Notes under the pieces: model-generated
What the model saw: only the letters and a program-made list of their open reading frames with translations
Told to the model about the DNA's origin: nothing
Database searches by the model: none
In this document: positions 1-41,390 of the stretch, piece after piece
Numbering within the stretch: position 1 is the first letter of the stretch
How the letters are laid out: each line of letters begins with the position of its first letter
Position numbers and translations under genes: made by a program
Source: Fibrobacter succinogenes
Lineage (GTDB): Bacteria; Fibrobacterota; Fibrobacteria; Fibrobacterales; Fibrobacteraceae
Length of the DNA stretch: 64,000 bases
Direction: 5' to 3'
Assembly (NCBI GenBank): GCA_902791475.1
Contig: CADAWC010000030.1
Span: 205-64,204 of the forward strand

Positions 1-1255
1 GCTCGTGACGAGCCGCGACATCATTACGCTCTGGGTCGCCCGCATGGTGCTCTTCAGCCAGGAAAACATGGGCACGGTTCCGTTCCACACGGTGTACATC
101 CACCCGAAGATTTTGGACGGCAATGGCATGACCATGAGCAAGTCCAAGGGCAATGGCGTGGACCCGATGGACATCGAAAAGAAGTACGGCACGGACGCTC
201 TCCGCTTCGTGATGGCAAGCCTCTGCACCGACAACCAGGACGTTCGTCTCCCGGTGAAAAAGGAAAAGCAGGAAGATGGTTCTGTCATCAACACGAGCGA
301 AAAGTTCGAAATTGGTCGTAATTTCTCGAACAAGCTCTGGAACGCTTGCCGCTTCTTGTTCCCGCACTTGGAACAGGCAGGAGCCCTTTCCAAGGACATG
401 CTCCCGATGGATTCTTCGATTTTCGCTCTCGAAGACCGCTGGATTCTCTCTCGCTTGAACTCCACCATCCAGGACGCAACGAAGATGCTGGAAGAGTTCC
501 ACTTTGCTGAACTCGCCGGTTTCCTCTACCGCTTTGTGTGGGACGACGTTTGCTCCAGCTACTTGGAAATCAAGAAGGCCGTGATCAACAGCGAAACGCT
601 CACCGCCGAAAAGAAGAACGCTATGGCAATCCTCAGCCACGTGCTCCGCGGCGTGATTGACCTGTTGCATCCGGTGATGCCGTTCATCACGGAAGAACTG
701 AACGCAACGCTCTTCCCGGGTTCTGAACGCGTGATTAACAGCGCTTGGCCGAAGGCTGACACGAGCCTCATCGACGATAAGATCGAAGCCGCATTCAACC
801 AGGCATTTGCCGTGGTGGAAAGCGTGCGCGGTGTTCGTGGTCGCTACAACGTAAGCCCGGCTACCAAGCTCAAGGCTGTTGTGAGCGTCGATACCGCCGA
901 AACCGAAGCAAGCGTGAAGGACTGCCAGGCCATCATCACCGAACTCGGCGGCCTCGAATCGTTCTCTGTGGCTGTTAAGGCTGCAAAGCCGAAGTTCAGC
1001 GCAAGCTCCGTGGTGCCGGGTGGCGAACTCTACATCCCGCTGGAAGGTATCCTTGACCCGGCTGCAGAAATTGCACGCCTCGAAAAGGAAATCGAAAAGG
1101 CCAAGGCATTCGCTGCTTCTATCGAACGCAAGTTGTCGAATGAAAAGTTCGTCAATGGAGCTCCGGAAGCTGTCGTGAACGCCGAACGCACCAAGCTCGC
1201 TACACAGCAAGATATCATTGCTAAAAATGAGGCAGCACTCAAAGAGCTGAAGTAA
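1..1255 (+). CDS. valS: Valyl-tRNA synthetase, C-terminal part (5' end outside window)
   Basis: KMSKS-type motif (TMSKSKGNGVDP), YGTDALRF, anticodon-binding region NKLWNACRF / LHPVMPFITEEL and C-terminal coiled coil KLSNEKFVNGAPEAVV typical of ValRS. Confidence 0.97.
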   Translation, partial: LVTSRDIITLWVARMVLFSQENMGTVPFHTVYIHPKILDGNGMTMSKSKGNGVDPMDIEKKYGTDALRFVMASLCTDNQDVRLPVKKEKQEDGSVINTSEKFEIGRNFSNKLWNACRFLFPHLEQAGALSKDMLPMDSSIFALEDRWILSRLNSTIQDATKMLEEFHFAELAGFLYRFVWDDVCSSYLEIKKAVINSETLTAEKKNAMAILSHVLRGVIDLLHPVMPFITEELNATLFPGSERVINSAWPKADTSLIDDKIEAAFNQAFAVVESVRGVRGRYNVSPATKLKAVVSVDTAETEASVKDCQAIITELGGLESFSVAVKAAKPKFSASSVVPGGELYIPLEGILDPAAEIARLEKEIEKAKAFAASIERKLSNEKFVNGAPEAVVNAERTKLATQQDIIAKNEAALKELK

Positions 1256-32886: not shown

Positions 32887-33576
32887 TTACTTTTTGAGTT
32901 TCGTCAGGAATCCGTACTGGAACGGGATAAAGTACGAATGGCTCAACAAGTTCGGCATGAACTTGAGCTGTTTGCGGATGCCCACGATGCGTTCCACTTC
33001 GAGACCGTTTTCCTTCGCAAAGCGCACAAAGCTCTTCTTTGTCCAGAACGTCTTGTGGTTGATATCGAGAACGCCGAGCGCATGTTCGCCTTCGTCCGGC
33101 TTAAAATAGCGGAAATCTCTCGTGATGATAATCTTGAGGAGGTTTTCGATGCAAATAAAGTTCGGCAAAGAAACGAGAATATGGCCATCGGGATTCAAAT
33201 GTTTCTTGCAGAAATTGATTAAATCCACCGGATCGTTCACATGTTCCAAGACATCGCACATGACCACCAAGTCAAACTTGCGGTCCTCGGTATATTCCTC
33301 ATAAAATCCATGATGGTATTCGTTGAAGCCTCCCGGGACCTTGTCAATCGTCTGTGCATCGGTACGCTCTTCGGGTTCGATAGCAACTTTGTAAGAATCC
33401 TTGGGGTAAATAACGTAATTCATTCCGGCGCCCGCCCCAATTTCAAGAACGCTCCTAGCATCCTTCGGGACAAGCGTAGCAACATCATAACGAATCTTAT
33501 TGCGATACATAAAAACCTTTTTTCTTAAATATAAATTTTTCGAAATCAAAAATGCTATTTTTGCAATCAATGGCAA
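32887..33576 (-). CDS. Class I SAM-dependent methyltransferase
   Basis: VLEIGAGAG, FDLVVMCDVLEHVNDP, L.PDGHILVSLPN, H..FWTKKS. Confidence 0.88.
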   Translation of the reverse strand: MPLIAKIAFLISKNLYLRKKVFMYRNKIRYDVATLVPKDARSVLEIGAGAGMNYVIYPKDSYKVAIEPEERTDAQTIDKVPGGFNEYHHGFYEEYTEDRKFDLVVMCDVLEHVNDPVDLINFCKKHLNPDGHILVSLPNFICIENLLKIIITRDFRYFKPDEGEHALGVLDINHKTFWTKKSFVRFAKENGLEVERIVGIRKQLKFMPNLLSHSYFIPFQYGFLTKLKK

Positions 33577-34511
33577 CCGATAAGACAGGCAAAAAGCTCT
33601 TTGTCAAGCGAATAATCCAGCTTCTCGTAAGCATTGGTGGTTTTGCCTACATATTCTACAAAATCCCGCTCAGCGAAGTCATCGACAATTGGAATATCAG
33701 TATGACGCCGTGGATTTTGGCAATGCTTGTCGCGGCAACGCTCGTCATGGCAATCCAGGCGAACCGCTGGAAAGGGCTTTCGGTACAAGGTCCAAAAATT
33801 CCGTTCAAGACATACTACGCCTACACCGCCATGGGATACTTTTTCAACAACCTGCTCCCGACCGGTTTTGGTGGCGACGCCGTGAAGTCCCTAGCATTTG
33901 GAAAGAAATTTAACCAGACCAGTCAATCCGTTTCGGCTGTATTGCTCGCCCGCATCCAGGGACTACTCGCTATGTTCCTCTGTTTTTTCTTAGCACTCCC
34001 CTTTGCACTGAACCAAGCCGAAATTCCCATCGCCTACACCATCACGATGACAGTTGCGTTGCTCGCCTGCATGGTCATTGTCGTGCTCTGCCTGTTTTCG
34101 GACAAAATACCGGTTCCCCATTTTTTAACCGACCGACTCGCCTTTATTCCCAAATTGCAAAACAGCCTCTCTATATATAGGAAGCATAAAAAGCAAATTT
34201 TGCTCTCGTCACTCGATTCGCTGTGGTTACAGTTACTGACGTTGTTTATAGCCTATGCCTATTTCCGGGCGGTCGGAGTCGATATCGACATCAGCATTCT
34301 AGTCGTATTCACTAGCATCACTACCGTTATTTCGATGGTTCCGATTTCACTCAACGGCATCGGTGTCCGCGAAGGGACTCAAGTGGCCCTGTTCACGGGC
34401 ATTCTTGGAATTCCGGCATCGGTCGTGCTGTCCGCCGGGCTGCTAGGCTACATTCCGCTACTGTTCCAGGCCGCCCAAGGTGCGGTCGTGCTCCTCGCTC
34501 GGAAAAAATAA
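33570..34511 (+). CDS. Lysylphosphatidylglycerol-synthase TM / UPF0104 flippase-like membrane protein
   Basis: RW motif, FFNNLLPTGFGGD, PISLNGIGVREG. Confidence 0.85.
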   Translation: MATDKTGKKLFVKRIIQLLVSIGGFAYIFYKIPLSEVIDNWNISMTPWILAMLVAATLVMAIQANRWKGLSVQGPKIPFKTYYAYTAMGYFFNNLLPTGFGGDAVKSLAFGKKFNQTSQSVSAVLLARIQGLLAMFLCFFLALPFALNQAEIPIAYTITMTVALLACMVIVVLCLFSDKIPVPHFLTDRLAFIPKLQNSLSIYRKHKKQILLSSLDSLWLQLLTLFIAYAYFRAVGVDIDISILVVFTSITTVISMVPISLNGIGVREGTQVALFTGILGIPASVVLSAGLLGYIPLLFQAAQGAVVLLARKK

Positions 34512-34577: not shown

Positions 34578-35216
34578 TTATTCTTCAGCGAGAGCTTCCT
34601 TATATTCATCGACGGTAGCGATATACTCGTCAATCATATCCTGCTTGGAATCCAAGTGAGCGAGAATCTTTTCGAGGTGTTCCTTGGAGAACACGGTCTT
34701 GAGCTGACGGGAAGCATGGCCCTTGTAGCCCCATTCCTTGAGAATTTCGTCGGTCACCACGAAGGAATCGTCGAGGGAGACAAAACGCATCGGACCGTAG
34801 ACAGCCCAGTTGTGTTCCATCTGCATGCATTCCGGTTCTTCCATTTCCGGGTTTGCCATGTAGCGCTGCACGTGACGGGTACGCACATCCTTGATCTTGT
34901 CGATACGCATATAACCCATGATGAGGTACTTGTTGCGCATTTCAGAATCGCTCAAGCCTTCGTAACGGGTACCGAAAAGAATGTAACGGCTCTTGCTCTT
35001 CACGATTGTGTTGATAGCCTTCACATTGTAGCAGCTCATCAGACCATAGGTGCTGGTTTCATAGTTCGGTTCGTAAAGAAAACCCTTTTCATTTTCATTC
35101 AGCTGGTCGCGGACAGGCATTTCGGACTGATGGCTAGTTTCGACATAAAGCAGGCTACCCGCCATGTTGCCACGGTAGTCTTGCCAACCTTCGAGATTGA
35201 TCTGTGTTTTCGGCAT
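34578..35216 (-). CDS. Conserved-looking hypothetical protein
   Basis: 212-aa ORF with strongly biased codon usage; no confident family. Confidence 0.75.
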   Translation of the reverse strand: MPKTQINLEGWQDYRGNMAGSLLYVETSHQSEMPVRDQLNENEKGFLYEPNYETSTYGLMSCYNVKAINTIVKSKSRYILFGTRYEGLSDSEMRNKYLIMGYMRIDKIKDVRTRHVQRYMANPEMEEPECMQMEHNWAVYGPMRFVSLDDSFVVTDEILKEWGYKGHASRQLKTVFSKEHLEKILAHLDSKQDMIDEYIATVDEYKEALAEE

Positions 35217-35318: not shown

Positions 35319-36128
35319 TTAAAAAGTCAATGACTCCGCCGAAATATTGTCCATTCCAAAGCGAAAAGCGCCTTTTTTGAAGAATTCTGCGGTATCAGTC
35401 GTCAAATAATGCACAGAACCACCCTTCGAAAGTCGTTTTTCCATGTCCACATGTCGCTTGAGGTAGTCCAAAGTCTTGTCGGCGACAATATCGCCCTGGA
35501 CCACCAAGCGGACGTGCGGTGGAAGTGCGGCCCGAATTTCTTCTTCGAGGAGCGGGTAATGCGTGCAGGCAAGTAAAACTGTATCGATTTCAGGGTCAGC
35601 CGCAAGCAGCTGGTCCACGTCCTTTTTCACGAAGAATCGGGCACCCTCGGTCCCGCGTTCGCCATATTCCACCAACGGAACCCACATCGGGCAGGCATGC
35701 TGCGTCACCTTCAAGTTCGGGAAAAAGTGGCTGATTTCAAGAACGTAGCTGTTCGAAGAGACCGTCCCCGCGGTGGCAAAAATGCCGATATGCCCCGTCT
35801 TCGAGAAGTTCCCAATCTCTTCGGCGGTCGGGCGGACAATGCCCAAGACGCGACGGTCCGGGAATTCTACCGGAAGCACCTGCTGCTGGATGCTGCGGAG
35901 CGCTTTTGCCGACGCCGTGTTGCAAGCGAGAATCACCAGCGGGCATCCGCGGTGGAAAAGTTCACGCACGGACTGGAGCGTGTAGCGGTAAATCGTCTCG
36001 AAACTGCGGGAGCCATACGGCGCACGGGCGTTGTCCCCCAAATACAGGTAATCGTACTGCGGGAGCGTGTGGCGAAGCTTCTGCAAAATCGTGAGCCCGC
36101 CAAAACCAGAATCAAAGACGCCGATCAT
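35319..36128 (-). CDS. murI: Glutamate racemase
   Basis: IGVFDSGFGG, GDNARAPYG, ACNTASA, LACTHYP. Confidence 0.96.
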   Translation of the reverse strand: MIGVFDSGFGGLTILQKLRHTLPQYDYLYLGDNARAPYGSRSFETIYRYTLQSVRELFHRGCPLVILACNTASAKALRSIQQQVLPVEFPDRRVLGIVRPTAEEIGNFSKTGHIGIFATAGTVSSNSYVLEISHFFPNLKVTQHACPMWVPLVEYGERGTEGARFFVKKDVDQLLAADPEIDTVLLACTHYPLLEEEIRAALPPHVRLVVQGDIVADKTLDYLKRHVDMEKRLSKGGSVHYLTTDTAEFFKKGAFRFGMDNISAESLTF

Positions 36129-38388
36129 AAGCTTCTTCCATCATTTTACGGACATACGGGAGCAGTTCGTGGCGCGGGTCCATTTCATCGCCGCCGTGAG
36201 TTTTCTTGAATTCGACCGTATCTATCGGTTCAAGAATCTTGATGTTCACCGGGTGATGCTTGGAATCCTTGCGGTGTTCCCAGAGCAAGTCAGAACCACG
36301 AGTGACCATCGGCAATATAATTGCGTTTGCCTCGACGGCAAGTCTAAAGCAACCGCTCTTGAAAGCGACCATGCCATCGCGCTTGCTGCGGGTACCTTCC
36401 GGGAAAACGAAGAGTCTCGGCATCTTGCCCGACTGGATAGCCTTTTGGATAATCGCAGCGCCGCCGCCCTTTTCGCGGTCGATAAAGACGCAACCGAGCT
36501 TGTGCATCCAGAAGTTCAGAATCGGGATGCGCTGCAACTGCGTCTTCGCGATAAAGCCCACGGTACGCTGCAAGGCCAAAAACGCAAGCGGGATATCCAG
36601 GTACGAACGGTGGTTGCCCATCACGAACACCGGGCGAGTCCAGTCCACTTTCGCAAGTTGCGCCTGGTCTTCAATCGTCAAATCCACACGCAAGACTTTC
36701 ATGCAGAAGCGGGAGAAGACCTGCACCTTTTCTTCAAGCCAAGGATCCAAGTCTTTACGACGGAAAATGTACATGAATGCAATCTTGAAAATATATTCGA
36801 GCATAAACGCAAAAATTCTTGCCGCTCCATATATCTTAAATAACATAACTGGCATATTACACTCTGTTTTTGAATTTTCCCTGGGCAAAAAACGAGACCG
36901 TTTGAGTTTCGTCAGGCGCCCTTTCCAATATCTACGTTTGCAATATAGCAAAACCAAAAAAGATTCAGCCCGCGTGACCCCGACGTAAAACAATCGGCGT
37001 TCCTCATCGAGCTGTTTTTGACGCTCTTTACGCGTGCCCAAGCATGAACCTGGCGTAAGCCCCTCGGACATTCCCGCATAATAGACCACCGCATACTGGA
37101 GCCCCTTGGACGCATGGACTGTTTCCACATGGATTCCATTTTCAAGGACTTCGCCCTCCCCCTCTACGTTACCTGCCTCCGACACGACCGTCCCTGCGAT
37201 CGGGAGATGCGCATCGCGAAGCGCTTCTTCGTAATATAGGCGTTGCCTATTATAGCGCACGAGGATTGCAAAGTTTTTCCATTGGAGGTCATAACTTTCG
37301 CGGAGCAACTTGATGCTCGTGATGATTTTTTGCATTTCTTCGACAGGGTCTTCACTCACCCAGATTTCGGGTTCACGGTTTTCCTTAAAAATCGGCGAGC
37401 CGCCCGAGCCATTCATGTTGCCCGCACGCAAGACCTTCCGCAAGTGGATAGGCTTGTTTTCAAAAATCCTATTCGAAAAATGTAAAATGTTCGCGACCGA
37501 ACGATAATTCCATTCCAAGCGAATCAGAGAGCTCTCCTTGAAGTCATCGCGGAAACGGTTGATATTCCCGATATCGGCCCCACGGAATCCGTAAATGGCC
37601 TGGTCATCATCGCCCACAACAAACAACGACTTGCGCTCACCCAGCAGCGCTTTGACGAGTCGGTACTGCGACGGGTTGATGTCCTGATATTCATCGACAA
37701 GAATTTCGGTCCATTGATTTTGGAAATATGCGCGCGCCGACTCGTGATTTTCGAGCAAGTTTATCGCCTGGTAGATGAGGTCTTCGAAGACGACTTGACC
37801 CGATTCCAAGATGCGATTATGCAATGGTTCAAGTTTTTTGAGGAGCTTCGCGGGATGTGCATCCGAGAAAAGCTCTTCGCGCGAGAAGCGGAATTTTCGA
37901 CCGCCGAAACGCCTCCCGACTTTTGCGAGTTCCTGCATAAACGATTTGTCCGACGATTCCGTCGGGACCGGCATTTTCTTGAATCCGACAAGTTCGTACG
38001 CCGGGCAAGAGCTGCAAGCGCCCGCCCCACCTGTCATCCCGGATTCATTCCGGGATCGCCATTCTTCATCATGTTTAACAGTAACCTTAGATTTAAGAAT
38101 AAACAGCGCAAGCGAGTGGAATGTGCAGAGCCGCACACCCGCATTCGGGAAGAGCTTTTGCACACGTTCCCGCATTTCGGCTGCAGCCTTCGCCGTAAAC
38201 GTGAGCGCCAAGATTTTCTCGGGTTCAACGCCCGACATAATCCGGTACTGGATTCGCTTGGTCAAGACCGAAGTCTTTCCCGAACCTGCCCCTGCTAAAA
38301 TTAAAAGTTGTCCGTTCTTTTCATGATCGTGGAGTACCGCCGCACGTTGGTCGGAGTTCAACCCGACCAAAAGACTTTCTACATCCAT
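36112..38388 (-). CDS. Fusion: compact UvrD/Rep SF1A helicase + 1-acyl-sn-glycerol-3-phosphate acyltransferase (PlsC)
   Basis: AGAGSGKT, TFTAKAA, DEYQD, GDDDQAIYGFRGA, NYRS, TVHASKGLQY, EERRLFYVGVTRAE; then NHRSYLD, FIAK, FIDR, FPEGTRS in the same frame. Confidence 0.88.
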   Translation of the reverse strand: MDVESLLVGLNSDQRAAVLHDHEKNGQLLILAGAGSGKTSVLTKRIQYRIMSGVEPEKILALTFTAKAAAEMRERVQKLFPNAGVRLCTFHSLALFILKSKVTVKHDEEWRSRNESGMTGGAGACSSCPAYELVGFKKMPVPTESSDKSFMQELAKVGRRFGGRKFRFSREELFSDAHPAKLLKKLEPLHNRILESGQVVFEDLIYQAINLLENHESARAYFQNQWTEILVDEYQDINPSQYRLVKALLGERKSLFVVGDDDQAIYGFRGADIGNINRFRDDFKESSLIRLEWNYRSVANILHFSNRIFENKPIHLRKVLRAGNMNGSGGSPIFKENREPEIWVSEDPVEEMQKIITSIKLLRESYDLQWKNFAILVRYNRQRLYYEEALRDAHLPIAGTVVSEAGNVEGEGEVLENGIHVETVHASKGLQYAVVYYAGMSEGLTPGSCLGTRKERQKQLDEERRLFYVGVTRAESFLVLLYCKRRYWKGRLTKLKRSRFLPRENSKTECNMPVMLFKIYGAARIFAFMLEYIFKIAFMYIFRRKDLDPWLEEKVQVFSRFCMKVLRVDLTIEDQAQLAKVDWTRPVFVMGNHRSYLDIPLAFLALQRTVGFIAKTQLQRIPILNFWMHKLGCVFIDREKGGGAAIIQKAIQSGKMPRLFVFPEGTRSKRDGMVAFKSGCFRLAVEANAIILPMVTRGSDLLWEHRKDSKHHPVNIKILEPIDTVEFKKTHGGDEMDPRHELLPYVRKMMEEAYDRRL

Positions 38389-38452: not shown

Positions 38453-39463
38453 CTATTGAGCGTTCTTTGCGAATTCTGACGGTACGGGCTTGTGCCCCAC
38501 CAAAAATGCGACCGCGCCAAACAAACTCAAAATCAAACTTACAAAATAAGCGAGCAACTGAATCACAACTGATTCAAGTCCAGGCACGCCAGCACGCGCA
38601 AAAAGCGACTGCGCCAAAAATTCACGCGGACCAAAACCGCCAATCGAAATCGGGAGCGCACTCACAATAGCGACAAGCGGAATGTAATAGAAATACCAAG
38701 ACATCGAGAGGTTCACACCCACAGCAATTCCGCAGAAAAAGTGCACAAAGATGCGGAGCGACTGAGTGACCGTCGAAAGGCAAACGATGTTCACCCAAAG
38801 TTTCTTGGAGCGGAACTTCTGGAAACGTTCAAACATGCGCAACAAGCGTGTCTCGATTTTTTCGGGCAACACCTTCCCTGCCATGCGGCAAAAGAACTTG
38901 CCAATGCGACGGCTCAAAAGCCCTGCAAACATCACGCAAAAGCCCATAAAAATCCAAACCGACGGCCACATGAACGCCCGCTGTTCAGGATCGTGTACAA
39001 AGAACAACACACCGACCGCAAGCGCAAACAATGTAATAAAGAAAAGACCGAACAAACGATCGAATACCGTAGCCGTAAAACCTGCACCGACAGTATCTTG
39101 ACCGCCCTGCACACGGATATCGTAAACTTTCTTGGCATCGCCGCCGACGTTTCCCGGCATAAAGTTGTTAAAGAAAAGCCCCACATGATAAAGCTTGAGG
39201 AGCTTTCCGTACGTCATATGAACGCCCTGTTTTTCAAGCAAGAGTTTCCACTGATAACAGGCCGTAAAGTTAGAAACCGCAAGGCAAAGAAGCGCGAGCA
39301 CCAGCGGGAGTACACTGTTGTTCTCGAACAATTTATAAAGGTCATTTACGCTCCATTCCGGGTCACTCACAATGTTTTGATAAACAAAGTAAGCAGGAAC
39401 AAGCGTTACCACCAGTTTCAAACAAAAAATAAGTACAGATTTTATCTTCGGATTCAACTTCAT
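38453..39463 (-). CDS. Lysylphosphatidylglycerol-synthase TM / UPF0104 flippase-like membrane protein
   Basis: FFNNFMPGNVGGD, DRLFG, LPISIGGFGPRE. Confidence 0.85.
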   Translation of the reverse strand: MKLNPKIKSVLIFCLKLVVTLVPAYFVYQNIVSDPEWSVNDLYKLFENNSVLPLVLALLCLAVSNFTACYQWKLLLEKQGVHMTYGKLLKLYHVGLFFNNFMPGNVGGDAKKVYDIRVQGGQDTVGAGFTATVFDRLFGLFFITLFALAVGVLFFVHDPEQRAFMWPSVWIFMGFCVMFAGLLSRRIGKFFCRMAGKVLPEKIETRLLRMFERFQKFRSKKLWVNIVCLSTVTQSLRIFVHFFCGIAVGVNLSMSWYFYYIPLVAIVSALPISIGGFGPREFLAQSLFARAGVPGLESVVIQLLAYFVSLILSLFGAVAFLVGHKPVPSEFAKNAQ

Positions 39464-40605
39464 TTTCGTACGCCACCCTCAACCGTACGTTGCAACAACT
39501 CTAGAGTTTCGCGAGCAGAATTTTCCCAACTGAACGTAAGCGCATAACGTTTTGCATTCTGACCAAGAGCCGCGCGCAATCCTGCATCGCCATAAATCTT
39601 TTCCATTGCAGAAGCGCATGCGGCCGCATCTCCCGACGGGAACAGAATTCCCGTCTCGCCGTCACGGACGCTATCGCAGAGTCCCGGCACATCCGACGCA
39701 ATCGTCGTCTTGCAGAGCTGCGCCGCTTCCATCACCGTGAGGCCCCAGCCTTCCTTGTAGCTCGTCTGCAACAGCGCAAGCGAAGACGAAAGCAGTTCGT
39801 ACTTGCGAGCGGCAGGCACAAAACCCGTCAGTTCCACCTTGCCATCCAGGCCGTGCGACTTGATCCAGGCCGGGAGCTTTTTCAAAAGCGGACCACCGCC
39901 CACAATTTTCAACTGGACTTCGGGATGCGACTTCGAGAATTTTTCAAACGCTTCAAGCGCCGTCCAAATTCCCTTATAACGGTGCACACGCGAAAGCCAA
40001 ATGAAATACGGGTTCGCCGTATTCTCACAAGATTCCGCAATACCAGTCGCAAGGTCCGCGCACTCCGCAACTTTAGGTTTTTCCGAACCATTATAAATCA
40101 CGGAAATTCGGCTTTCGTCCACGCCAATTTCGGCGAGCTCTTTCTTGGTACTCGGACTCACCACCACAAAATTCTGTGTGCGGTAAAAGAACGGGATAAT
40201 GCGTTCAAAGAACCAGACGCCAAACGCGACCGGGAAAATCGCTTCAGCAAAAATCGACTTCCGCCACAAGTGATGCATCTGCACCAGGAGCGGCTTGCGG
40301 ACGAACCAGTGGGCAAAGACCGGCAACTTGTTCAAATCTTCAACAACAACGTCAAAGTTGAATTCGCGGTCAAGCTTCTTCAGATTCAGCGCCACCGTGA
40401 GCTGGAACATCAAATCGCCACCCTTGCGGATGACCTGAATTCCATCAACAACTTCGCGTTCTTTGGCTCCCGGAAATGTCGTCGTAAACAGGACCACCGT
40501 GTGGCCCATTTCTACAATCTTTCCGAAAATGCGATGCAAATGCTTTTCGGCGCCGCCGGCAGCCGGATGCATGCGATCCCGGTAATTTACGACGAGAATT
40601 TTCAA
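39460..40605 (-). CDS. Glycosyltransferase family 4
   Basis: GGAE, VSPSTKKEL, YNG, KEGWGLTVMEA, ASDVPGL.DSV.DGETG. Confidence 0.92.
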   Translation of the reverse strand: MKILVVNYRDRMHPAAGGAEKHLHRIFGKIVEMGHTVVLFTTTFPGAKEREVVDGIQVIRKGGDLMFQLTVALNLKKLDREFNFDVVVEDLNKLPVFAHWFVRKPLLVQMHHLWRKSIFAEAIFPVAFGVWFFERIIPFFYRTQNFVVVSPSTKKELAEIGVDESRISVIYNGSEKPKVAECADLATGIAESCENTANPYFIWLSRVHRYKGIWTALEAFEKFSKSHPEVQLKIVGGGPLLKKLPAWIKSHGLDGKVELTGFVPAARKYELLSSSLALLQTSYKEGWGLTVMEAAQLCKTTIASDVPGLCDSVRDGETGILFPSGDAAACASAMEKIYGDAGLRAALGQNAKRYALTFSWENSARETLELLQRTVEGGVRK

Positions 40606-40613
40606 GCAATCAC

Positions 40614-41390
40614 CTAAGGCTTACGACCGATCACGCCAATGCAAAGCTGCGTGTAGTGCATCACCGGCACAGACTGGAGGCTATCCAAAATCTTGTCCTT
40701 AATCTTCTGGTAAGCCGTTCCGTCGAGCGGATACTTCGGGAGTTCAATACCGAACTTGAAGCAGAGTTCGCGCAGAATGCGGTAGAAAAGATTCGGGCGC
40801 ATCCAGTCGCCATAAGCATAAACACATTCGAAGCCAGCGTCACGCATGAGCTTCTTGAGCTGACCCATCGTGAACTGTTTTTCCCAACCGGCAAACCACT
40901 TGTCGAGCGCAATCAAGATATGCTTGATAATCGTATACGGGTGGACCGTCTGTGGCACGTCACAAAGGCAGCAACCGCCGTGCTTGACGATGCGGAAGTT
41001 CTCTTGCAAGAGCGGGAGCGAATCCTTGAAATGTTCGGCCAAGCCCTGATGGAACACCAGGTCAAAAGTATTATCCGGGAACGGGGACTTGAAAGCGTCG
41101 CCACGAACCAAGTGCAAATTCTTGAGACCTTCACTCTCGCGGAGCGAATTGACAATTTTCAAGCTATTGTCGGCAAAATCGAGCACATAGACATCGGCGC
41201 CCAAACGAGCAAGTTCAGCACTGTCGCGGCCGGTACCTGCACCGACCTCCAGCACCTTCAAGCCCTCGAGCTTAAAATTCTTCTTAATAGCTTCTATAAT
41301 AGACGGCGAAGACGGATAGACTTTGTCCATGTCGTTCTTGCGCTGCCAAAAACGGTTCCATACGGATTGATCGGGCTCTTTTATTGACAT
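40614..41390 (-). CDS. Class I SAM-dependent methyltransferase
   Basis: VLEVGAGTG, GDAFKSPFPDNTFDLVFHQGLAEHF. Confidence 0.9.
   Translation of the reverse strand: MSIKEPDQSVWNRFWQRKNDMDKVYPSSPSIIEAIKKNFKLEGLKVLEVGAGTGRDSAELARLGADVYVLDFADNSLKIVNSLRESEGLKNLHLVRGDAFKSPFPDNTFDLVFHQGLAEHFKDSLPLLQENFRIVKHGGCCLCDVPQTVHPYTIIKHILIALDKWFAGWEKQFTMGQLKKLMRDAGFECVYAYGDWMRPNLFYRILRELCFKFGIELPKYPLDGTAYQKIKDKILDSLQSVPVMHYTQLCIGVIGRKP

Follow-up and report, generated by a model that had tools for sequence, protein, structure and literature searches.

Within a 64,000-nucleotide stretch of the Fibrobacter succinogenes genome (GenBank assembly GCA_902791475.1, contig CADAWC010000030.1, positions 205 to 64,204 of the forward strand; hereafter the window), a single open reading frame (ORF) on the reverse strand, P0001, joins a compact helicase of superfamily 1A (SF1A), of the UvrD/PcrA/Rep type, to a complete PlsC acyltransferase (Table 1). 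The helicase lacks subdomain 2B, both catalytic centres are intact and strictly conserved, relatives carry the two genes as pairs in the state preceding fusion, and the acyltransferase half is orthologous to a PlsC found across the phylum. With moderate confidence, we regard the product as a genuine bifunctional, membrane-tethered protein, the two activities of which are linked by location and stoichiometry only.

Pfam resolves the predicted protein into UvrD-helicase (PF00580, amino acids (aa) 10-284, full profile, E-value 1e-65), UvrD_C, which is split into two pieces, and Acyltransferase (PF01553, aa 580-695, E-value 4.5e-25, 88 bits against a cut-off of 23). The SF1A motifs Q, I, Ia, II, III, IV, V and VI are all present, and are invariant across the compact family and in 124 fused homologues. 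Apart from the motifs in Table 1, TFTAKAA starts at residue 63, VGDDDQAIYGFRGA at 258, NYRS at 294 and EERRLFYVGVTRA at 462. A sequence-only reading of the window had described the helicase motifs as intact and had counted about 40 aa between AILVRYNRQ and TVHASKG; every motif it listed was found in place, and 40 residues separate the end of the former (382) from the start of the latter (423). The same reading had the frame continue through a hydrophobic helix into a complete acyltransferase. The acyltransferase is indeed complete, but the helix is the N-terminal two-helix motif of PlsC itself, being neither a linker nor transmembrane.

Subdomain 2B is a regulatory switch of the UvrD, Rep and PcrA helicases. 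In a phmmer comparison with PDB sequences, residues 1-100 of the fusion protein aligned to residues 1-100 of Escherichia coli UvrD (3lfu/2is1), 195-397 to 183-374, and approximately 415-502 to approximately 550-634. In place of 2B (UvrD ~375-550, ~175 aa) the fusion protein has about 18 residues (398-415), and the loop at this site is 5-33 aa long in all 124 fused homologues, which bears out the earlier claim of a helicase without 2B. Residues 101-195, the 1B region, could not be aligned to UvrD, and in the fused homologues this segment can be as short as 34 aa or as long as 132 aa. It includes a low-complexity insert rich in Gly, Ser and Cys (aa ~105-130, window positions 37999-38076, reverse strand) that is very variable in length between close Fibrobacter proteins and disordered in the structural model. 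The helicase part ends about 30 residues after motif VI (...SRFLP, ~aa 502) and is followed directly by PlsC, the C-terminal tail of UvrD/PcrA being absent; the two canonical UvrD/PcrA paralogues of the same genome carry long C-terminal tails. Since these paralogues (852 and 804 aa, both with 2B) have been kept, together with AddA/RecB-like helicases, the helicase of the fusion is an extra one. Among NCBIfam models, PcrA, Rep and UvrD rank first, each matching in three separate stretches and far below its equivalog cut-off (300.9 against 911 bits, 278 against 951 and 258 against 1144, respectively).

An AlphaFold2 (AF2) model of the fusion protein, generated from an alignment of 36 sequences, has a PcrA/UvrD-like core, a mean predicted local distance difference test (pLDDT) score of 85.1 and a predicted template modelling (pTM) score of 0.77. 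Only three segments are disordered in the model, namely the 1B insert (110-125), the 2B-site loop (400-412) and the domain junction (505-512). When the model was used as a Foldseek query, the best matches were PcrA (1pjr, E-value 2e-34), UvrD and Rep. Downstream of motif VI, CKRRYWKGRLTK aligns to UvrD AETRRLYGKEVY and is modelled as a beta-hairpin with strands at 485-488 and 491-494; the aligned stretch of UvrD is what we take to be its strand-separation pin.

PMC3720892 quotes literature in which Rep minus 2B is an active monomeric helicase that unwinds faster than the wild type, as the sequence-only reading had stated, and the PcrA-s protein of Mycoplasma pneumoniae, which is naturally devoid of 2B, is highly active (PMC3720892). 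For mycobacterial UvrD1, deletion of 2B is described as unmasking helicase activity and abolishing the repair function in vivo (PMC13646824).

The fusion is widespread among relatives. More than 120 full-length homologues (96-65% identity), several of them from named Fibrobacter isolates, have the same Pfam architecture. When the junction was probed with a fragment covering aa 416-758, one uninterrupted frame of approximately 700-820 codons was matched in 55 of the 56 genomes sampled from f1, the family of the window (7 genera), and a single frame of the same kind spans the junction in one genome of a sister family (G136, family f3). The sequence-only reading had proposed a genuine fusion, and on this count it stands; separate ORFs in relatives, which it had named as grounds for refutation, were found outside the order, where they show how the fusion arose and do not refute it. 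The sole f1 genome in which no match was found, G146, is 98% complete and might represent either a real loss or an assembly gap.

Residue conservation was derived from an alignment of the 124 fused homologues. In the helicase half, Q14, K38, D232, E233, Q263, R296, R378, H425, R465 and R473 are invariant; conservation is stronger in the helicase core than in the PlsC half. Both the 2B-site loop and the junction linker, which spans 12-18 aa in the homologues, drift freely. Because the catalytic residues are invariant while the loop and the linker drift, both halves are under purifying selection.

Residues 527-728 align to residues 22-221 of Thermotoga maritima PlsC (5kym; E-value 5e-18, phmmer against PDB sequences). 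Two AF2 helices (514-542 and 544-565) correspond to the N-terminal two-helix motif of PlsC and were aligned with the N-termini of unfused PlsC proteins. As the Kyte-Doolittle maximum of the anchor is only 1.51 over 19 residues, the anchor appears to be amphipathic, with no clear transmembrane helix; judged from its sequence, an amphipathic or interfacial placement of the helices fits better than a transmembrane one. PMC10146087, which cites Robertson 2017, describes PlsC as monotopic, anchored by the N-terminal two-helix motif and with its N-terminus in the cytoplasm, in agreement with the earlier statement that PlsC is membrane-associated. Given a cytoplasmic N-terminus of the anchor, a helicase fused to it N-terminally would lie at the inner face of the membrane and would therefore be topologically unproblematic.

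The best NCBIfam match of the C-terminal part is AGP_acyltrn (TIGR00530), which at 91.9 bits stays below its cut-off of 102.95. Apart from the fusion gene, the genome carries three standalone PlsC-like and two Aas-like genes. In a phylogenetic tree, the fused PlsC half clusters (support 96/96) with the standalone single best PlsC of 10 other Fibrobacterota genomes, including genomes without the compact helicase; the order of branching agrees with taxonomy, and the paralogues of the window genome (C2, C8 and C17) lie outside the clade. By this phylogenetic measure, the PlsC half is orthologous to the standalone PlsC that almost all sampled genomes of the phylum possess. NCBIfam scores alone do not single out a housekeeping PlsC among the paralogues, and the tree favours the fused copy as the phylum-wide orthologue; the PlsC to which the helicase is attached is thus probably the housekeeping copy and not an accessory paralogue.

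Outside the order, the compact helicase is encoded by a separate gene (458-544 aa, ~35% identical, likewise without 2B). In several genera belonging to another order of the same class, this gene lies directly upstream of a plsC gene of ~240 aa. The two overlap by 4 nt as ATGA at locus L001 (genome G112), and a 4-nt overlap was also judged from ORF coordinates at L011, from a metagenome-assembled genome named "Fibrobacteria bacterium"; at L002, L009 and in G144 the genes are adjacent. At L003 (G078), the helicase gene ends ...KKKD-TAG and is followed, in the same frame, by TTG TTA ATG of plsC, so that one substitution would create the fusion. The start Met of the unfused PlsC at L001 and L003 aligns exactly to M512 of the fusion protein. 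A motif-pattern search of genome contigs added little to this series: 79 of the 80 loci retrieved were ordinary UvrD genes of other phyla, the patterns being generic UvrD motifs, and L011 was the sole useful one. The only other neighbour that recurs is a divergent gene with a response-regulator receiver and an HATPase_c_2 domain, located just upstream of the helicase in two f4 genomes of different genera (L001, 4421-5332, reverse strand; L003, 9040-9948, forward strand), in both of which helicase and plsC are adjacent.

In a maximum-likelihood tree, one clade (99/94) unites the fused and adjacent compact helicases with most of the solitary ones, and the compact forms of families f9 and f11 make up a second compact group near the full-length enzymes. 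The f1 fusions, the f3 fusion and a solitary f2 gene share an unresolved node, which is compatible with one fusion event as well as with two. P0125, a seemingly unfused protein (503 aa, on a contig of 3989 nt), nests inside the fused clade and might reflect a secondary fission or a gene cut by the end of the contig. In a whole-library HMMER search, about 30 compact clusters (at 50% identity) ranked ahead of the ordinary UvrD/PcrA proteins of 650-800 aa; ten of the compact clusters were looked up, and all 3 that bore an organism name were from Fibrobacterota.

Unfused compact helicases (L001, L003, L005-L009; P0132-P0247) end in tails, 15-55 aa long where usable, that are rich in Lys and Arg and in Phe, Leu and Trp and have a net charge of +1 to +8. 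In the fused proteins this basic tail is reduced to a neutral linker of ~11 aa. By its composition, the tail could bind membranes or nucleic acids. An amphipathic membrane-targeting helix was considered for these tails and rejected; the composition is suggestive, but the hydrophobic moments are not above those of shuffled tails.

Compared with UvrD, PcrA and Rep (2is1, 3lfu, 1pjr and 1uaa), which are the best matches in both sequence and fold, the helicase half is alike in all motifs, in the fold of 1A, 1B and 2A, and in the beta-hairpin after motif VI, which aligns to ...RRLYGKE... of UvrD. Unlike them, it has neither 2B nor the Tudor-like extension that binds RNA polymerase, its 1B region is unalignable and variable in length, it is fused to a membrane enzyme, and it is a third paralogue beside two canonical copies. 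M. pneumoniae PcrA-s (MPN340) is likewise a natural SF1A helicase without 2B and is reported to be highly active (PMC3720892), and in the engineered Rep and UvrD1 variants the removal of 2B relieves autoinhibition (PMC3720892, PMC13646824). PcrA-s, however, is a species-specific, soluble duplicate of PcrA, whereas the protein described here belongs to a multi-family Fibrobacterota clade of ~30 clusters at 50% identity and is joined to PlsC. The two losses of 2B are unlikely to be homologous. Loss of 2B is in itself already known from PcrA-s; here it defines a whole clade.

With PlsC/LPAAT enzymes (5kym; E. coli PlsC), the C-terminal half shares HX4D, GxxFIxR, FPEGTR, block IV, the two-helix membrane motif and a length of ~245 aa. 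In contrast to standalone PlsC, it carries a 511-aa helicase extension at its N-terminus, scores slightly below the TIGR00530 cut-off, and in f1 is encoded in an operon-like block beside methyltransferase, GT4 glycosyltransferase and YbhN-like genes. In E. coli K-12 the gene of a DNA-transaction enzyme, parC, is likewise immediately upstream of plsC on the same strand (L091, NC_000913.3, 3162744-3165973; 233 nt separate the two, and ftsP comes next), an independent instance of plsC among genes for DNA transactions and cell division. There, however, the enzyme is a type II topoisomerase subunit, the genes are 233 nt apart and unfused, and the arrangement is of independent origin, such that the likeness is an analogy only. 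The E. coli gene was, we believe, first described as parF, a partition locus, although a literature search gave no confirmation of this. A search of the literature for a UvrD-PlsC fusion found no paper.

We regard the fusion as vertically inherited; it originated from two translationally coupled genes, a 2B-less helicase gene and, directly downstream of it, the conserved plsC of the lineage, through loss of the stop codon that had separated them. The two-helix motif of PlsC would embed in the cytoplasmic leaflet, holding the whole polypeptide at the inner face of the cytoplasmic membrane, where the C-terminal half would acylate a lysolipid, most likely 1-acyl-glycerol-3-phosphate. The N-terminal half would be an ATP-driven 3'-5' translocase or helicase on single-stranded DNA. 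Without the autoinhibitory 2B and the RNA-polymerase-binding tail it would be active as a monomer, but would be devoid of the partner contacts of UvrD, Rep and PcrA. Because 2B and the C-terminal tail mediate those contacts, the helicase of the fusion probably works outside the UvrD, Rep and PcrA pathways, for which, to judge from the gene content, the two canonical paralogues remain available. The activities would be joined by co-localisation and 1:1 co-expression and not by shared chemistry, with the helicase tethered at sites of membrane synthesis. The sequence-only reading had also envisaged a coupling of DNA or RNA metabolism to lipid synthesis; nothing in the present data shows chemical or regulatory coupling.

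Several observations weigh against a bifunctional protein of this kind. In families f2, f5, f9 and f11 the compact helicase is apart from plsC, among unrelated neighbours. In f12, whose sole match is a partial one within a 510-aa frame, it apparently stands apart from plsC as well. Many Fibrobacterota genomes have no compact helicase, most other families showing only full-length UvrD homologues. Since the helicase is often absent or unlinked from plsC, the pairing is not obligatory for either partner. Around solitary and adjacent compact helicases, no conserved neighbour except plsC was found that would point to a pathway. The PlsC half falls just below the TIGR00530 cut-off, as does the best standalone paralogue of the genome (94.6 bits), and the substrate named above is one that we infer from sequence. 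An internal start at M512 could yield free PlsC. This residue is Met in 120 of the 124 homologues and lies inside the conserved motif MPV[IM]LF[RK]I; as that motif marks the start of a helix, the conservation of the Met does not discriminate in favour of an internal start, and no clear Shine-Dalgarno sequence was found upstream of it. Finally, the envelope proteome of F. succinogenes S85 has no entry assignable to the fusion protein. The entry FSU_0064 is a standalone PlsC in a fab cluster, and FSU_2283 (UvrD/REP), located beside a large "conserved domain protein", is probably AddA-like.

The fusion ORF is the fourth gene of a block of five on the reverse strand (Table 1). From the methyltransferase gene onward, the spacing is an 8-nt gap to the GT4 gene, a 4-nt overlap with the flippase-like gene, a 64-nt gap to the fusion and a 17-nt overlap with murI. 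The sequence-only reading had these genes apparently co-transcribed; the spacing, from which the claim draws its support, is compatible with this, and no convincing terminator was found between the five genes. The part of the block from the methyltransferase to the fusion, together with a divergent sigma-factor gene, is syntenic at L010, in another genus of f1, and murI is outside that synteny. The methyltransferase, GT4 and flippase-like context is conserved within the family only. It is absent around the unfused helicase-plsC pairs, and for this reason says little about the helicase. Two paralogous LPG_synthase_TM (PF03706) genes lie within 5 kb of each other in the window (33552-34511, forward strand; 38453-39463, reverse strand). 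They are ~28% identical, as inferred from both matching one L010 protein, and each adjoins a class I methyltransferase gene (32887-33576 and 40614-41390, respectively). Downstream of murI, a 212-aa ORF (34578-35216, reverse strand) has no Pfam or PADLOC match.

Table 1. Features of the fusion ORF and of the neighbouring genes (window coordinates; aa numbering of the fusion protein; conservation among fused homologues)
Feature	aa	Window position	Strand	Evidence or remark
Glutamate racemase-like Asp/Glu racemase (MurI)		35319..36128	-	Downstream; overlaps fusion ORF by 17 nt; adjacency not seen in L010
Fusion ORF (P0001)	758 aa + stop	36112..38388	-	Frame open throughout; >120 full-length homologues with same Pfam architecture
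Compact UvrD/PcrA/Rep-type SF1A helicase module (1A, 1B, 2A)	1-505	36874..38388	-	Without 2B and C-terminal Tudor-like extension; Pfam/NCBIfam, UvrD alignment, AF2, Foldseek
Walker A / motif I, GAGSGKT	33-39	38272..38292	-	K38 in 123/123 homologues having that column
1B-like helical region	~101-195	37804..38088	-	Sequence not alignable to UvrD 1B; AF2 helices 144-160, 170-174, 180-196
Motif II, DEYQD	232-236	37681..37695	-	Invariant, 124/124
Motif IV region, AILVRYNRQ	374-382	37243..37269	-	Motif location and UvrD alignment
Short loop at 2B site	398-415	37144..37197	-	UvrD ~375-550 without counterpart; pLDDT <50 at 407-410
Motif V, TVHASKG	423-429	37102..37122	-	H425, K428, G429 invariant
Fusion linker, LPRENSKTECN	501-511	36856..36888	-	After conserved helicase C-terminal SRF motif; poorly conserved, low model confidence
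ATG codon of M512, ancestral PlsC start	512	36853..36855	-	Aligned start Met of unfused PlsC (L001, L003)
PlsC N-terminal amphipathic two-helix membrane-anchor motif (predicted)	512-565	36694..36855	-	AF2 helices, hydropathy, 5kym alignment
PlsC/LPLAT catalytic domain	566-758	36115..36693	-	Blocks I-IV located; Pfam, NCBIfam
Block I, NHRSYLD	592-598	36595-36615	-	N592, H593, D598 invariant, 124/124
Block II, GCVFIDR	632-638			R638 invariant, 124/124
Block III, FPEGTRS	662-668	36385-36405	-	P663-R667 invariant, 124/124
Block IV, IILPMV	690-695			
Stand-alone LPG_synthase_TM membrane protein (flippase-like / YbhN-like)		38453..39463	-	Upstream; synteny kept in L010
GT4-family glycosyltransferase		39460..40605	-	Synteny kept in L010
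Class I S-adenosylmethionine-dependent methyltransferase		40614..41390	-	Probably first gene of apparent operon; synteny kept in L010

Among other explanations, the one that survives best, which we consider possible though clearly less likely than a protein whose two activities merely share a location, is that the helicase has to work alongside PlsC at the membrane, and that selection for this coupling favoured first the gene pair and then the fusion. Possible roles would include DNA or RNA processing at sites of membrane synthesis, chromosome segregation, replication hand-off, and DNA uptake or export. The linkage of helicase and plsC is the sole neighbourhood feature conserved across lineages at ~35% identity, where it passes from translational coupling to fusion, and at least 7 genera have kept the fusion without any change in either active site. 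The pTM of 0.77, obtained for a chain of two modules, hints at a defined packing between the domains of the model, and the short basic, hydrophobic and aromatic tails (+1 to +8) of the unfused members could bind membranes, although the shuffled-tail comparison gives this no statistical support. The position of plsC directly downstream of parC in E. coli K-12, on the same strand, offers an analogy. However, the helicase is dispensable in many relatives and in several is unlinked from plsC, the tails have hydrophobic moments no higher than those of shuffled ones, and no genes for uptake, segregation or similar partners were found nearby. Furthermore, all linked and fused cases belong to one class, and inheritance could explain the linkage without repeated selection. 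A more far-reaching form of this idea, which we consider doubtful, is that the 2B-less helicases of Fibrobacterota are dedicated membrane-proximal motors that depend on the adjoining PlsC at sites of membrane growth, the pair having been selected first and the complex having been fixed later by fusion.

It is quite improbable that the helicase-like ATPase is no working helicase but a sensor of nucleic acids or nucleotides that regulates the acyltransferase and so links lipid synthesis to replication or the growth state. The physical fusion, to a PlsC half orthologous to the phylum-wide enzyme, is the sole support for such a role, whereas the elements that contact and unwind DNA are all conserved (motifs Ia, III and V, and the hairpin aligned to the presumed separation pin of UvrD), and PlsC orthologues work without a helicase in most of the phylum. 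A component of anti-phage defence, such as a Gabija GajB-like or other UvrD-type helicase of a defence system, is very improbable. PADLOC models of GajB match at 224 bits, but these hits reflect no more than UvrD homology in general, and PcrA matches better, at 301 bits. There is no GajA-like neighbour (OLD/TOPRIM nuclease), and the gene lies not in a variable island but among lipid and envelope genes whose core synteny is conserved; with generic GajB hits only, and MurI, LPG_synthase_TM, GT4 and methyltransferase genes as neighbours, an identity with Gabija or another defence system was rejected. That the fusion is peculiar to this one assembly, as a frameshift introduced by sequencing or assembly or as a pseudogenised junction, has a negligible probability: the same single frame recurs in over 120 independent assemblies and in 55 of the 56 family genomes, the catalytic residues are invariant and internal stops are absent.

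A natural clade of helicases without 2B provides ready-made test cases for how motors lacking this subdomain are controlled in vivo. Throughout one order the helicase is physically joined to the phylum-wide PlsC orthologue, and a DNA motor would thereby be permanently tethered to the membrane, a situation that is unusual among SF1A enzymes and would limit the DNA within reach. The steps by which this came about form a "Rosetta stone" series: solitary genes, an adjacent pair overlapping at ATGA, an in-frame TAG-ATG junction and, finally, the fused gene. If the pairing is neutral, the series is a caution against inferring function from fused operon neighbours; if the coupling is functional, it offers a handle on how bacteria coordinate DNA transactions with membrane growth. 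Should these helicases prove to be dedicated motors of the membrane, they would tie DNA transactions directly, at the molecular level, to phospholipid synthesis, a connection that the parC-plsC arrangement of E. coli has long suggested; chromosome replication or segregation, or DNA transfer, for example, would then be coupled to the synthesis of the envelope.

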